64,000 bases of DNA. Source: Escherichia coli (GTDB lineage Bacteria > Pseudomonadota > Gammaproteobacteria > Enterobacterales > Enterobacteriaceae). Positions 6,421-61,817 of this stretch are shown here, in pieces. The position numbers and the translations under genes were made by a program. Numbering within the stretch: position 1 is the stretch's first letter; every line of letters starts with the position of its first letter. The notes beneath the pieces were generated by a model. That model was not told where the DNA came from. It saw nothing but the letters and a program-made list of their open reading frames with translations, and searched no databases. The stretch is taken from the NCBI RefSeq assembly GCF_002854065.1, contig NZ_CP024147.1; one strand, written 5' to 3'.

Positions 6421-6744
6421 TCGTTTTTCCTTAAACAAGGAATGCAGCCGTTCAGATTAGCCCTTACATCTCCCCAAAACTGAACGTGCGAGTTATTGGA
6501 ATCGAGTGCTGCACTCCACACCAGAGCTTTGACGACACCACTCGTTTCAATGGGGGAATTCAGTGGCATGGTGTAAAGCACAGCAAAATTGCCAATAACG
6601 AAACCGATTTTAATGTACTTATCAAAAAGCGGTCACGTTAATCTTTTCATCAATGTCGATTTCTTCGTAAAGGCTCGCGTTTTTTATGTCAGAGATTGCA
6701 AGTTGCTTGTACAGGTCAACGAAATTGATCCATAATCATTTTCG

Positions 6745-6818
6745 TTGGAATCGTGTGCTGCACAAAATTAAAGTTAAAAAGTAAAACCCCCGTTCCTTAC
6801 CAGTTCGGGGGTTTTACT
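6745..6818 (+). ncRNA. ohsC: Candidate OhsC antisense sRNA (antitoxin of shoB); boundaries approximate
   Basis: Putative promoter (-35 TTGTAC 6707-6712, 18-nt spacer, -10 CATAAT 6731-6736), a 19-nt segment (6745-6763) that directly repeats 6496-6514 in the shoB 5' region with one mismatch, and a rho-independent terminator hairpin (AAAACCCCCG...CGGGGGTTTT, 6784-6815). Boundaries inferred, not measured. Confidence 0.45.
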
Positions 6819-6841
6819 TTATAAAGAGAACGGTATTATTT

Positions 6842-8704: not shown

Positions 8705-10317
<1,613 letters not shown>

Positions 10318-10559
10318 TCAGCACACGAAACAGACCTGATATACATGGCTCTGCTAACTGCTTCGCTGCAGTTTCAGTTTAGCGGTATATGGGGACCAAC
10401 GCTGTTTCGTGTGCCGTGGCAACCTGGAGGTGCCAACCTTAAACTTCGGGGGAATATTCTATACACAACGACGGGGGATGTCGTTAGCCACGGGAGATTT
10501 ATCTCATAAATAATTCACGTTGTCGCCATAACGGCGACAACGTGAACGAAGATGAGCTA

Positions 10560-11549: not shown

Positions 11550-13349
<1,800 letters not shown>

Positions 13350-13546
13350 AAAGTATGATTATTGTGCCTTAATGCCCGGTTAACCAGGCTTTTAGAAGTC
13401 GCTGTTCTGAGCTTAACGTCTGTATTAATAGAAACGCCGCATTCTACACTACAACATTGAGGCGAGGAAATGTTCATACCGTATGGATTGTGGTATCTGG
13501 AAACGTCCTCGCATTTGTTATGCAAAATGCAACAAAGCCAGTGAAA

Positions 13547-14026
13547 TCACTGGCTCGCGTCTTCCGAAGATGTTTCAAATCGCACAAGGCCAGGCGGCAA
13601 TGCCACGCTTAAGATGATCGGTTGCCATTCTGCCCGGGCAGCAAACTTACGCGAGTAGCCACGCGCAATCAGGAACCCGCCAATACCGCCGAGGACCGCA
13701 CCACATAATGCTGCGACGTCAGAAGCAAAGAGTAGCTGAAATAGCGAAGCGATGAGGAATAATCCCACCAGCGGCGACATATAAACCAGTAATGCGGAGC
13801 TAAGCAGGCTGCCTTCGGCGATCCCCAATTCCACTTTTTGCCCCGGCACTAACGGCTCATCACAGGGTACGACAATGGTATGCGTGGTTTGCGGGCCAAG
13901 TTTATTCAACACGCGGCTACCGCAACCGGCGCGTGAAGCGCAGCTGCTGCATGAGGCTTTAACATCACAACTGACCAGCGCCTGCCCGTTTTGCCAGGAG
14001 ACGACGGTAGCCCACTCTTTGATCAT
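13547..14026 (-). CDS. rseC: Sigma-E regulatory protein RseC
   Basis: 159-aa ORF MIKEWATVVSWQNGQALVSCDVKASCSSCASRAGCGSR... Confidence 0.93.
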   Translation of the reverse strand: MIKEWATVVSWQNGQALVSCDVKASCSSCASRAGCGSRVLNKLGPQTTHTIVVPCDEPLVPGQKVELGIAEGSLLSSALLVYMSPLVGLFLIASLFQLLFASDVAALCGAVLGGIGGFLIARGYSRKFAARAEWQPIILSVALPPGLVRFETSSEDASQ

Positions 14027-14979
14027 TGCGCTGCCCCGAACTTAATATTCTCGGCAATGCGTTTCGCCGTTTGCGGCGGCAGTTCACCGACAATGGTGAT
14101 TTCGGCGTTATCACGTACGCTTGTACTGACGGTTCTGCGTCCGGTGCGCAACATCTGATCGGTGCTCGATGGCGTAGCGCGGTTAACGTTTACCGAGAAG
14201 CTGAATAATCCGTCGGAATAGAGACGTGATTCGATAGGCATGTTGTCCATCGTCGGTAGCGGACGTCGACTACTGGAAACTTCGCTAAAACCCTGTGGCA
14301 ACCAGGTTGGCGTCCAGCTGAATTTAGCTTTTTCACCTACAGGAACAGAAAGCAACGGCGGCAAATTTGCCTTCGCCAGCGTCTGCATACTGCTGCTGAT
14401 ATCCTGATTGACGTTAAAAGCAATCACGCGAAATTGTTCCAGCGTTTCACCATCGCGATCAAGAAGATCAACCCGCATCGGTAATTTCGATTCGGTGTCC
14501 ATCCACACGATGTAGCTGTAGCGTGTACCATCTCGGGCAACCACGCGAATGACTTCGCAAAGACGATCAGCAATACGCGTGCGCCCGACGGAGATAAAGT
14601 CGTAGTAAGGAGAAAGGCGTTTGAAATCGGTATAGATGAGCGATGGCAGAGAATCAACAATGTAATCGCCATTAAGCGTGAACGGTTCAAGTCCCGGTTC
14701 AAAATAGCTGATTTCATTGCCGCGCTGTACCACTTCCCGGCGCGGGCCATCCATTTGCAACAATTGTGCAAGAGGACGGTTATCGAGGCGTGCATGTCGA
14801 TAACGCAGAGACTCAACACCCTGTTTATTGATGCTGATGAATGACAGCTCGTAATTCAGTGACTGACTGGCCAGGTTCATCTGCTGTAATAACGCCCCGG
14901 ACGCGGGAGTGGCCGAGGCGTTAGCAGAGAATAACAGGCTACCTGTCACTAATGACATGGCAAACCAAAGTTGCTTCAT
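14023..14979 (-). CDS. rseB: Sigma-E regulatory protein RseB (periplasmic)
   Basis: 318-aa ORF with signal peptide MKQLWFAMSLVTGSLLFSANASA; 4-nt overlap with rseC. Confidence 0.95.
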   Translation of the reverse strand: MKQLWFAMSLVTGSLLFSANASATPASGALLQQMNLASQSLNYELSFISINKQGVESLRYRHARLDNRPLAQLLQMDGPRREVVQRGNEISYFEPGLEPFTLNGDYIVDSLPSLIYTDFKRLSPYYDFISVGRTRIADRLCEVIRVVARDGTRYSYIVWMDTESKLPMRVDLLDRDGETLEQFRVIAFNVNQDISSSMQTLAKANLPPLLSVPVGEKAKFSWTPTWLPQGFSEVSSSRRPLPTMDNMPIESRLYSDGLFSFSVNVNRATPSSTDQMLRTGRRTVSTSVRDNAEITIVGELPPQTAKRIAENIKFGAAQ

Positions 14980-32118: not shown

Positions 32119-32238
32119 ATGCCTGGCAGTTCCCTACTCTCGCATGGGGAGACCCCACACTACCATCGGCGCTACGGCGTTTCACTTCTGAGTTCGGCAT
32201 GGGGTCAGGTGGGACCACCGCGCTACGGCCGCCAGGCA
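32119..32238 (-). rRNA. rrfG: 5S ribosomal RNA
   Basis: 120-nt reverse-complement match to E. coli 5S rRNA (TGCCTGGCGGC...GGAACTGCCAGGCAT). Confidence 0.95.
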
Positions 32239-32330
32239 AATTCTGTTTTATCAGACCGCTTCTGCGTTCTGATTTAATCTGTATCAGGCTGAAAATCTTC
32301 TCTCATCCGCCAAAACAGCTTCGGCGTTGT

Positions 32331-35233
<2,903 letters not shown>

Positions 35234-35426
35234 TCACAACCCGAAGATGTTTCTTGCGACTCATCATCGTGTTGCGAAAATTTGAGAGACTCACGAACAA
35301 CTTTCGTTGTTCAGTGTTTCAATTTTCAGCTTGATCCAGATTTTTAAAGAGCAAATATCTCAAACATCACCCGAAGATGAGTTTTGAGATATTAAGGTCG
35401 GCGACTTTCACTCACAAACCAGCAAG

Positions 35427-35502
35427 TGGCGTCCCCTAGGGGATTCGAACCCCTGTTACCGCCGTGAAAGGGCGGTGTCCTGGGCCTCTAGACGAAGGGG
35501 AC
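35427..35502 (-). tRNA. gltW: tRNA-Glu (spacer tRNA of the rrn operon)
   Basis: 76-nt reverse-complement match to GTCCCCTTCGTCTAGAGGCCCAGGACACCGCCCTTTCACGGCGGTAACAGGGGTTCGAATCCCCTAGGGGACGCCA. Confidence 0.95.
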
Positions 35503-35587
35503 GTATCAGTCTGCTTCGCAAGACGCCTTGCTTTTCACTTTCTATCAGACAATCTGTGTGAGCACTGCAAAGAACGCTTCTTTAAGG

Positions 35588-37129
<1,542 letters not shown>

Positions 37130-37310: not shown

Positions 37311-37338
37311 ATAATACGCTTTCCCGCCACAGAGTCAA
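37311..37338 (-). promoter_or_regulatory. rrn P2 promoter (-35 TTGACT, 16-nt spacer, -10 TATTAT)
   Basis: Minus-strand GCTTGACTctgtggcgggaaagcgTATTATgcatacccc with GC-rich discriminator. Confidence 0.55.
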
Positions 37339-37429
37339 GCATTTATTTTTGCTTTCTCTACCGGAATTCTCAGGAGAACCCCGCTGACCCGGCGGCGTGT
37401 TTGCCGTTGTTCCGTGTCAGTGGTGGCGC

Positions 37430-37457
37430 ATTATAGGGAGTTATTCCGGCCTGACAA
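37430..37457 (-). promoter_or_regulatory. rrn P1 promoter (-35 TTGTCA, 16-nt spacer, -10 TATAAT, GCGCCACC discriminator) with AT-rich UP/Fis region upstream
   Basis: Minus-strand CTTGTCAGGCCGGAATAACTCCCTATAATGCGCCACCACTGA is the classic rrn P1 core; AT-rich tract 37460-37540 upstream. Confidence 0.65.
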
Positions 37458-37572: not shown

Positions 37573-40146
37573 TTACTGGACGGCGACAATCCGGTCTTCA
37601 TTAACTTCCAGGCGAATCACTTTACCCGGAACCAATTCACCAGACAGTATTTGCTGTGCCAACGGGTTTTCGATCTGCTGCTGGATAGCACGTTTCAAAG
37701 GACGTGCACCATAGACTGGATCGTAACCGTTCTCGCTCAGCAGTTTCAGCGCCTCGTCAGAAATGTGGATTTCATAACCACGTTCTTCCAGACGTTTGTA
37801 CAGACGTTTCAACTGAATCTGCGCAATCGAGGCAATGTGCTGTTCGCCCAGCGGATGGAAGACCACCACTTCATCGATACGGTTAATGAACTCCGGACGG
37901 AAGTTATGGCTTACCACACCGAGCACCAGTTCTTTCATATGCGCATAATCCAGTTCACCGAAGCGTTCCTGAATCAAATCGGAACCGAGGTTAGAGGTCA
38001 TAATGACAACCGTATTACGGAAGTCGACCGTTCTCCCCTGCCCGTCAGTCAGACGCCCATCATCCAGTACCTGCAACAGAATGTTGAAGACATCCGGATG
38101 CGCTTTTTCCACTTCATCCAGCAGGATAACGGAATACGGACGACGACGCACAGCTTCGGTCAGGTAGCCACCTTCTTCATAACCAACATATCCCGGAGGC
38201 GCACCAACCAGACGAGACACCGAGTGTTTCTCCATAAACTCGGACATATCGATACGGACCATCGCCTCGTCGCTATCAAACATAAAGTTCGCCAGCGCCT
38301 TACAAAGCTCAGTTTTCCCCACACCAGTTGGGCCGAGGAACAGGAATGAACCAATCGGGCGATTTGGATCCGCCAGCCCCGCACGGCTACGACGAATAGC
38401 GTTAGATACCGCATCAACCGCTTCGTTCTGACCAATAACGCGATGGTGCAGTTCTTGCTCCATACGCAGCAGTTTTTCGCGCTCGCTTTCCATCATGCGA
38501 GAAACCGGAATCCCCGTCCAACGCGCCAGCACTTCAGCAATTTCGGCGTCGGTCACTTTATTACGCAACAGACGCATAGTTTTGCCTTCGAGCTGCGTTG
38601 CGGCTTCCAGTTGCTTTTCCAGCTCCGGGATTTTGCCGTATTGCAGTTCAGACATCCGCGCCAGGTCACCCACACGGCGAGCCTGTTCAATAGCGATTTT
38701 CGCCTGTTCCAGTTCCGCTTTAATGGTCTGCGTACCAGAAAGCGATGCTTTCTCTGCTTTCCACTCTTCTTCTAACTCGGAGTACTGACGTTCTTTGTCG
38801 CTCAGTTCTTCGTTGAGCATATCCAGACGTTTTTTACTGGCTTCATCAGACTCTTTCATTAACGCCTGTTGTTCCAGTTTGAGCTGGATGATACGGCGAT
38901 CGAGTCGGTCGAGTTCTTCTGGTTTTGAGTCAATCTGCATACGAATGCTGGATGCTGCTTCATCGATCAGGTCGATGGCTTTATCCGGCAGCTGACGGTC
39001 AGCAATGTAGCGATGAGACAACGTCGCCGCTGCAACAATTGCCGGGTCAGTAATTTGCACATGGTGGTGCAATTCGTAACGTTCTTTCAGGCCACGTAGA
39101 ATCGCAATGGTATCTTCAACAGAAGGCTCGGCAACAAACACTTTCTGGAAACGACGTTCCAGCGCAGCATCTTTTTCGATGTACTGGCGATATTCGTCAA
39201 GCGTCGTGGCACCTACGCAGTGCAATTCACCACGCGCCAGCGCCGGTTTCAGCATGTTTCCGGCGTCCATTGCGCCATCGGCTTTACCCGCGCCGACCAT
39301 GGTATGTAATTCGTCGATAAACAGGATGACGTTGCCTTCCTGTTTGGCAAGATCGTTAAGCACGCCTTTTAAACGTTCTTCAAACTCACCGCGATATTTC
39401 GCCCCAGCCACCAGCGCGCCCATATCCAGCGCCAGTACGCGGCGGCCTTTCAACCCTTCCGGCACTTCGCCGTTGATAATACGCTGCGCCAGACCTTCAA
39501 CGATGGCAGTTTTACCGACGCCGGGTTCACCAATCAGTACCGGATTATTTTTAGTACGACGTTGCAGCACCTGAATGGTACGGCGAATTTCTTCATCACG
39601 ACCAATCACCGGATCGAGTTTGCCCTGTTCGGCTCGTTCGGTAAGGTCGATGGTATATTTTTTCAAAGCCTGACGTTGGTCTTCAGCACCTTGATCGTTC
39701 ACGCTTTCACCTCCACGCATTTGTTCAATCGCTTGAGTAATGTTGGCGGTGGTCGCCCCTGCTGCTTTCAGGATGTCGGCCAGCGTGCCGCGAGACTCAA
39801 GTGCCGCCAGAACGAACAGTTCTGACGAGATAAAGTTATCACCACGTTTTTGCGCCAGCTTGTCGCAAAGATTAAGAACGCGCACCAGATCCTGTGATGG
39901 CTGGACATCACCACCAGTACCTTCAACCTGCGGTAAACGATTTAATGCCTGATTGATATCTGTGCGCAACTGGCCAGCATTTATGCCAGCTGATGTTAAC
40001 AAAGGACTAACCGAACCCCCTTCCTGATTCAGCAGGGCGCTCATTAAATGAAGTGGTTCGATGAATTGGTTGTCGTGCCCGAGTGCAAGTGATTGGGCAT
40101 CGGCAAGAGCAAGCTGGAATTTATTAGTAAGACGATCCAGACGCAT
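37573..40146 (-). CDS. clpB: Chaperone ClpB (AAA+ disaggregase)
   Basis: ORF 37573..40158 trimmed to [27 protein letters not shown]..., 857 aa; two Walker A sites ([16 protein letters not shown]). In-frame GTG at 39700-39702 (Val149) corresponds to the known internal start for the short ClpB isoform. Confidence 0.96.
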
Positions 40147-40182
40147 AACTCCTCCCATAACGGATCAAAGTTGCTACTGGAG

Positions 40183-40214
40183 ATTAAATGAGGTCATCCC
40201 TCAATTATTCAAGG
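40183..40214 (-). promoter_or_regulatory. Sigma-32 heat-shock promoter of clpB (CTTGAA ... CCTCATTTA)
   Basis: Minus-strand CCTTGAATaattgagggatgaCCTCATTTA approximates the sigma-32 consensus (CTTGAAA / CCCCATnT). Confidence 0.5.
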
Positions 40215-40275
40215 TTATTGACCAGATTAATGTGAAAAGAAAATCACACGTACCGGATCGTCTTGATTCTTTAGG

Positions 40276-43516: not shown

Positions 43517-43571
43517 TTGACAGCGTGAAAACAGTACGGGTACTGTACTAAAGTCACTTAAGGAAACAAAC

Positions 43572-43619
43572 ATGAAACACACACCGTTTTTCTTCGCATT
43601 CTTTTTTACCTTCCCCTGA
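43572..43619 (+). CDS. pheL: pheA leader peptide (Phe-rich attenuation peptide)
   Basis: ATG AAA CAC ACA CCG TTT TTC TTC GCA TTC TTT TTT ACC TTC CCC TGA = MKHTPFFFAFFFTFP*, 7 Phe in 15 codons. Confidence 0.85.
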   Translation: MKHTPFFFAFFFTFP

Positions 43620-43665
43620 ATGGGAGGCGTTTCGTCGTGTGAAACAGAATGCGAAGACGAACAAT

Positions 43666-43698
43666 AAGGCCTCCCAAATCGGGGGGCCTTTTTTATTG
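43666..43698 (+). terminator. pheA attenuator terminator
   Basis: AAGGCCTCCC-AAATC-GGGGGGCCTT hairpin followed by T-run, 20 nt upstream of the pheA start. Confidence 0.8.
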
Positions 43699-56615: not shown

Positions 56616-56646
56616 ATTATGGGGATCAGTTTCAGGGTTTCAAGGG
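56616..56646 (-). promoter_or_regulatory. Sigma-32 heat-shock promoter of grpE
   Basis: Minus-strand CCCTTGAAAccctgaaactgatCCCCATAAT, near-consensus sigma-32 -35/-10. Confidence 0.6.
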
Positions 56647-61454: not shown

Positions 61455-61817
61455 GGGGCTGATTCTGGATTCGACGGGATTTGCGAAACCCAAGGTGCAT
61501 GCCGAGGGGCGGTTGGCCTCGTAAAAAGCCGCAAAAAATAGTCGCAAACGACGAAAACTACGCTTTAGCAGCTTAATAACCTGCTTAGAGCCCTCTCTCC
61601 CTAGCCTCCGCTCTTAGGACGGGGATCAAGAGAGGTCAAACCCAAAAGAGATCGCGTGGAAGCCCTGCCTGGGGTTGAAGCGTTAAAACTTAATCAGGCT
61701 AGTTTGTTAGTGGCGTGTCCGTCCGCAGCTGGCAAGCGAATGTAAAGACTGACTAAGCATGTAGTACCGAGGATGTAGGAATTTCGGACGCGGGTTCAAC
61801 TCCCGCCAGCTCCACCA
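61455..61817 (+). ncRNA. ssrA: tmRNA (SsrA), 363 nt
   Basis: Starts GGGGCTGATTCTGGATTCGACGGG, contains tag reading frame GCAAACGACGAAAACTACGCTTTAGCAGCTTAA (ANDENYALAA*), ends with tRNA-like ...GGTTCAACTCCCGCCAGCTCCACCA. Confidence 0.97.

Follow-up and report, generated by a model that had tools for sequence, protein, structure and literature searches.

The analyzed stretch of DNA, 64,000 nt in length and hereafter called the window, belonged to Escherichia coli according to genome comparison: the 3 kb around the site under study were 100% identical to strain 100416, and the same 3 kb had at least 95% identity in nearly all of the 5425 matching complete E. coli genomes. The gene order in the annotation of strain 100416 was rluD, yfiH, clpB, and then a ribosomal RNA operon. 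The start of clpB was placed at ATG 40146..40144 in the RefSeq annotations of both this identical strain and K-12, while a mechanical listing of open reading frames gave a minus-strand frame from 40158 to 37573, four codons longer than the RefSeq gene. The upstream ATG (40156-40158, minus strand; MGGVM...) was considered as the start of clpB and rejected: it has no Shine–Dalgarno (SD) sequence of its own and precedes the primary SD UUAUGGGAGGAGUUAUG, with which it overlaps by one base, and RefSeq starts the gene at 40146. The extra codons, encoding MGGV, are an artefact of that listing.

The NCBIfam equivalog model for ClpB (NF008118) matched the encoded protein end to end (residues 1–857) with 1926.7 bits at a cut-off of 1417, and model TIGR03346 gave 1470.9 bits (cut-off 1232.1); the models for ClpV, ClpA, ClpK, and ClpG all scored under their own cut-offs on this protein. 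Pfam domains were found in the order Clp_N (two stretches), AAA (203–336), AAA_lid_9 (342–442), AAA_2 (596–760), and ClpB_D2-small (766–845), and solved structures of E. coli ClpB gave full-length matches. By both the equivalog score and the domain order, the protein is assigned to ClpB, the Hsp100 class-1 AAA+ disaggregase.

Several other features were recorded in the window (Table 1). A complete rRNA operon containing 16S, tRNA, 23S, and 5S genes was located directly 3′ of clpB; its spacer carried a StyR-44 match, the tRNA was annotated as Glu in the identical strain, and the 16S gene at this place in K-12 is rrsG. Two strong sigma-70-like promoters (11/12 and 10/12 matches) lay between clpB and the 16S gene, at the position expected for rrn P1 and P2. 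An Rfam match to the Ysr155/RyfD sRNA extended from the yfiH–clpB intergenic region through the sigma-32-like promoter and the 5′ UTR into clpB, of which it covered the first 20 nt; in K-12, ryfD is annotated at the equivalent position, overlapping the clpB start. The exact sigma-32 consensus TTGAAA-N13-CCCCAT was found once in the 64,000 nt, with 0.03 matches expected by chance, about 50 nt 5′ of the ATG of an ORF which, from the start of its translation, we take to encode GrpE; this element is probably the grpE heat-shock promoter. The remaining Rfam matches above the gathering score (ohsC, rncO, AsrC, Phe leader, and tmRNA) are ordinary for this region of E. coli.

Table 1. Coordinates of features at the clpB locus and elsewhere in the window
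Feature	Coordinates	Strand	Details
clpB, full-length CDS	37573..40146	-	ClpB95, 857 aa, 95.6 kDa; stop codon counted in
ClpB80, nested in-frame CDS	37573..39702	-	709 aa, 79.9 kDa (Val149 read as initiator Met), 2130 nt
Sigma-32-type promoter-like element	40185..40213	-	CTTGAAT, 13-nt spacer, CCTCATTTA; read by eye
Primary SD GGGAGGAG	40149..40156	-	5′ of the annotated ATG; 16S duplex −10.2 kcal/mol
In-frame ATG, Met143	39718..39720	-	Rejected rival start, six codons 5′ of GTG149
Internal SD GGAGGTGA	39707..39714	-	From codons Gly145 (GGA), Gly146 (GGT), and Glu147 (GA-)
Internal start codon GTG (codon 149)	39700..39702	-	Direct reading; relatives; Salmonella mutagenesis (PMC11005335)
Ysr155/RyfD sRNA match	40127-40265	-	Rfam, 123.4 bits, gathering score 42
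rRNA operon	32121-37129 and 37311-37457	-	16S, tRNA, 23S, 5S
Exact sigma-32 consensus	56619-56643	-	Probable grpE heat-shock promoter
ohsC antitoxin RNA	6744-6820	+	Rfam match above gathering score
rncO leader	10233-10447	-	Rfam match above gathering score
AsrC (antisense of rseC)	13231-14062	+	Rfam match above gathering score
Phe leader	43571-43696	+	Rfam match above gathering score
tmRNA	61455-61817	+	Rfam match above gathering score

The internal GTG codon and its Shine–Dalgarno sequence

Since clpB is annotated as starting at ATG 40146 in the identical strain and in K-12, the in-frame GTG at 39700-39702 is codon 149 of the gene. An earlier note on this DNA had described it as such, and direct reading showed that its coordinates, frame, codon number, and peptide context had been given correctly: the minus strand reads ATG CGT GGA GGT GAA AGC GTG AAC GAT CAA, encoding M143 R G G E S V149 N D Q. 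The SD-like element that the note had suggested looking for 5′ of the GTG was present and very strong. The spacing to the GTG is 4 nt from the end of the element and 7 nt from the end of its GGAGG core, and GGAGG occurs only once in the 2574 nt of clpB, all frames counted, namely inside this element. The predicted duplex with the 3′ end of 16S rRNA (−13.6 kcal/mol) was the strongest among the 56 in-frame ATG, GTG, and TTG codons of the gene, and stronger than the −10.2 kcal/mol at the annotated start. Gly145, with which the element begins, is encoded by GGA, the rarest glycine codon in clpB (3/63). A lone GTG is unremarkable because 21 of the 56 valine codons in clpB are GTG and the gene contains 56 in-frame codons of start type; the GTG by itself is thus not beyond chance, whereas its combination with the SD is.

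The K-12 MG1655 RefSeq annotation holds two clpB CDS features, the full-length one and ‘ClpB80’ (YP_010051194.1, 2731600-2733729). The latter starts at nt 445 of the gene, at a GTG corresponding to GTG 39702..39700 of the window, and its extent equals that of the nested frame found here (2130 nt). The ClpB protein is identical to that of K-12 and the genes are of equal length; the 30 nucleotide differences between them are all synonymous, the nearest to the site being at nt 156 and nt 603, and the 51 nt around GTG149 are the same in both. The K-12 clpB, producing ClpB95 and ClpB80, is therefore the same gene with the same protein and nested CDS extent, with no difference at the site itself. 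The earlier statement that the site is retained in this strain holds, as the protein is identical to K-12 and no nucleotide difference occurs within 157 nt.

For the dual starts of K-12 clpB, PMC11268196 and 10.1101/520783 cite Squires 1991 and Park 1993, and clpB is listed as one of three E. coli genes with a long-known internal start in bioRxiv 10.1101/520783, citing Park et al. 1993. In both K and B strains of E. coli, including BL21, Ribo-RET revealed a specific initiation peak at the internal start of clpB (10.1101/520783). Endogenous tagging in Salmonella gave two ClpB bands, and the mutation GTG445->CTT (Val149) led to the loss of the short form (ClpB-S), with the long form alone remaining (PMC11005335). 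A secondary SD and hetero-oligomers of ClpB95 and ClpB80 have also been reported (PMC11268196, PMC6941012). Initiation at GTG149 and the existence of two ClpB proteins have been demonstrated by others in E. coli and Salmonella, and GTG149 is the well-known second start giving the shorter ClpB80, already annotated in the reference genome. The identification of the GTG with the described internal initiation site was thereby confirmed: the K-12 ClpB80 CDS starts at the same codon, and the Ribo-RET and Salmonella mutagenesis data agree with it.

The short isoform might instead start at the ATG of Met143, leaving GTG149 as a mere valine codon. GTG is inferior to ATG as a start codon, the Met143 product (715 aa, 80.5 kDa) could not be told from ClpB80 on a gel, and the Ribo-RET signal of Salmonella was assigned to Met143 by an automatic caller (PMC11005335). 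However, nothing SD-like was found 5′ of this ATG (−1.4 kcal/mol vs −13.6 kcal/mol for GTG149), the GGAGG lying downstream of it, and Met143 is replaced by Leu in Edwardsiella and by Ile in Rodentibacter, with the GTG retained in both. Moreover, a Salmonella mutant in the Met143 ATG still has both isoforms, whereas the GTG445->CTT mutation alone removes the short one (PMC11005335). Met143 was rejected as the internal start on the absent SD and this mutagenesis, and the reading in which GTG149 is only a valine codon is left with next to no probability.

Conservation of the internal start

Within E. coli, the 81 nt centred on the site were identical in 5348 of the 5425 complete genomes, and a 35-nt core was matched exactly in 5399 of 5426. 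DNA of near relatives was reached via protein matches to ClpB residues 1–200, which were mostly truncated or frameshifted N-terminal fragments and included no named representative of Vibrio or Pseudomonas. The GTG at the internal site was preceded by GGAGGTGAAAGC in Salmonella, GGAGGGGAAAGC in Klebsiella and in a contig 86% identical, GGAGGAGATAAA in Edwardsiella, GGAGGAGACAGC in Plesiomonas, AGAGGTGGTGACAAA in a contig 82% identical, and GGAGGACAAAGC in Rodentibacter (Pasteurellaceae). A GGAGG-type SD and the GTG were thus kept across these seven despite synonymous and amino-acid changes nearby. The equivalent site of Shewanella reads GGCGGA...GTC, and a contig of Arenicellales has the GTG without an SD.

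Several assemblies in public databases, from Klebsiella, Edwardsiella, and a metagenome contig, carry clpB in two pieces, an N-terminal part of ~200–294 aa and a second ORF of 562–675 aa (locus L122, 601-2083; loci L124 and L125, genes 601-1236/1203 and 1148-1836/1803). The second gene call in L124 and L125 begins out of frame at approximately codon 183, so that these loci look like frameshifts or assembly errors and not like the use of an internal start. Some databases label such N-terminal ClpB fragments ‘type VI secretion system ATPase TssH, partial’.

A codon alignment was made of the first 176 codons of eight Enterobacterales/Pasteurellaceae sequences. Only three of its 84 conserved degenerate amino-acid columns used one codon throughout, and Val149 was the sole four-fold-degenerate column among them, with GTG in all eight sequences; the two other conserved valine columns used 3–4 codons each. 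Gly145 was GGA in seven of the eight sequences, and GGA was rare at the other glycine columns. A translation signal lying inside a coding region should be under selection at the nucleotide level. As GTG149 and GGA145 are held at the codon level while their synonymous neighbours vary, the alignment indicates such selection at the SD and the GTG in this Enterobacterales/Pasteurellaceae set.

For a broader comparison, a ClpB-motif pattern scan of a genome collection gave at least 120 loci from many phyla; the sample was limited to the initial 120 matches from a single scan, of which 116 were alignable at the codon-149 position. Among the matches listed, this position was occupied by valine in 81 of the 116 loci, by alanine in 29, and by another residue in six, the loci with alanine being mostly titled as alphaproteobacterial groups. 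The valine codons, again among the matches listed, were GTG (29), GTC (29), GTA (14), and GTT (9); the 29 GTG codons compare with 33.7 expected from valine codon usage in the same ORFs (z = −1.14). Some phyla, for example Bacteroidota, rely little on SD sequences. Scored against the E. coli anti-SD, the best SD of the gene stood at this position in one of the 30 listed loci with a start-type codon. Universal conservation of the internal start codon was therefore rejected for these 116 listed loci, in which GTG occurs at background frequency and an SD is seldom present. Because valine is common across phyla and GTG is not enriched over background codon usage, the comparison indicates that the valine itself is maintained by constraints at the protein level and that the internal start is lineage-restricted, not universal.

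A strong SD-like GGAGGGGAGAAG was seen before GTC, a non-start codon, at the codon-149 equivalent of one gammaproteobacterial MAG (L042), which suggests either that Gly-Gly codons can give rise to SD-like sequences where there is no start codon or that this locus has lost a start.

These data also bear on the possibility that the GTG and the GGAGG are by-products of an R-G-G-x-x-V protein motif, with proteolysis or an internal transcript as the source of any short ClpB. The RGG..V motif is indeed widespread, with valine found across the diverse ClpB loci listed, and across phyla GTG is no commoner at this position than elsewhere in the same genes. Against a coding by-product, the fixation of GTG (8/8) and of the rare GGA (7/8) in Enterobacterales/Pasteurellaceae goes beyond what the protein requires, and published mutagenesis and Ribo-RET show initiation at GTG149 (PMC11005335; 10.1101/520783). 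As for an internal transcript, a promoter scan, which covered the sigma-70 type, found no sigma-70-like site inside clpB on its own strand; the three sites detected all lay past the 3′ end of clpB, the two on the minus strand facing the rRNA operon. A shorter transcript from an internal promoter was rejected on this ground. We regard an origin of the short ClpB without initiation at GTG149 as extremely improbable.

The lineage restriction agrees with the ClpB of Anaplasma, which has no secondary SD and a single product (PMC11268196). ClpB without the N-domain has been reported in Mycobacterium tuberculosis (PMC6168691) and Leptospira (PMC6941012), with an internal start near the NTD–NBD1 linker. 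In Leptospira, an ATG start and possibly an internal transcript were reported, unlike the GTG of E. coli (PMC6941012), and nucleotide-level conservation of the start signals is not general among the 116 listed loci. Claims of conservation across species that derive from protein alignments (e.g., PMC6168691) fail at the codon level in this sample of listed matches, and a conserved valine alone gives no ground to assume a short ClpB in other bacteria. Our analysis thus adds codon-level support, drawn from sequence comparison, for a start held in Enterobacterales and one Pasteurellaceae species and not general to bacterial clpB.

Predicted mRNA folding at the internal site

The segment from the SD to the GTG was predicted to be mostly paired in its ±100-nt context: the mean unpaired probability was 0.165, within the lowest 2.4% of clpB positions, and it climbed to 0.27 at 50 °C. 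Taken at face value, this pairing would lower initiation at GTG149. According to PMC11005335, citing Chow and Baneyx 2005, the ratio of short to long ClpB shifts with heat and under SPI-2-inducing conditions. If mRNA structure at the internal site set this ratio, in agreement with those shifts, the SD..GUG segment could be a weak thermosensor or a site that opens only when ribosomes reach it from upstream.

Nevertheless, the folds were no more stable than those of shuffled sequences (z = −0.31 for 201 nt and −1.02 for 91 nt). The RNAalifold consensus of eight relatives reached only −3.29 kcal/mol; its covariation term was positive, convincing compensatory pairs were absent, and the upstream partner of the SD in E. 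coli, ‘ACCACCGCC’, varies freely among relatives. A conserved RNA element at the site was rejected on the z-scores, the negligible consensus fold, and the variable partner. Since the same three results weaken the idea that folding controls the isoform ratio, such control appears very unlikely from these predictions.

The two ClpB isoforms

The locus almost certainly has the canonical dual-start arrangement of clpB, with ClpB95 initiated at ATG 40146 and ClpB80 at GTG 39702. Comparison with the sigma-32 consensus suggests that one mRNA carrying both starts is probably driven from the CTTGAAT-N13-CCTCATTTA element upstream of the gene. On this single heat-shock mRNA, ribosomes could enter at either of two sites that share a reading frame. 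Those starting at ATG 40146 would produce the full-length protein (857 aa, 95.6 kDa), while others would load independently on the internal SD GGAGGUGA (39714..39707) and initiate at GUG 39702, yielding ClpB80 (709 aa, 79.9 kDa), which would begin in the linker past the N-terminal substrate-binding domain and retain both AAA+ modules and the middle domain.

The position of the start within the protein was judged from domain matches and solved structures. Pfam places the start of AAA_16 at residue 180 and that of AAA at 203, and structure constructs of E. coli ClpB start at residues 143 (4ciu), 150 (4hse), and 158 (1jbk); by these boundaries, codon 149 sits in the linker that joins the N-domain to NBD1. 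ClpB80 itself passes the ClpB equivalog cut-off, with profile positions 150–857 matched. As the Clp_N repeats precede the start and AAA_16 follows from residue 180, ClpB80 is predicted to be a complete ClpB minus its N-domain. The description of the product as an N-domain-less isoform was accordingly correct, since codon 149 follows the Clp_N repeats and precedes NBD1. The short ClpB is described as devoid of the substrate-binding N-domain, and mixed hexamers of ClpB95 and ClpB80 as better at disaggregation than either form alone, in PMC6941012 and PMC11268196, which cite Nagy et al. 2010 and Chow and Baneyx 2005.

Among known systems, the clpB of Salmonella Typhimurium (PMC11005335) is a close counterpart: the Salmonella contig has the same GGAGGTGAAAGC GTG, whose mutation abolishes the short form there, although it belongs to another genus and shows a few synonymous changes flanking the site (CAG, CGC, and GGG). 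The IF2 isoforms of infB and those of mrcB, listed together with clpB in 10.1101/520783, likewise involve one mRNA with an internal SD and an in-frame start giving an N-terminally shortened isoform; these proteins are unrelated to ClpB and have the mechanism alone in common with it.

In view of the sequence identity to K-12, the strain of the window would be expected to make both isoforms. The clpB gene encodes two proteins, and the nested ClpB80 CDS (37573..39702, minus strand) merits annotation in this genome, as in K-12.
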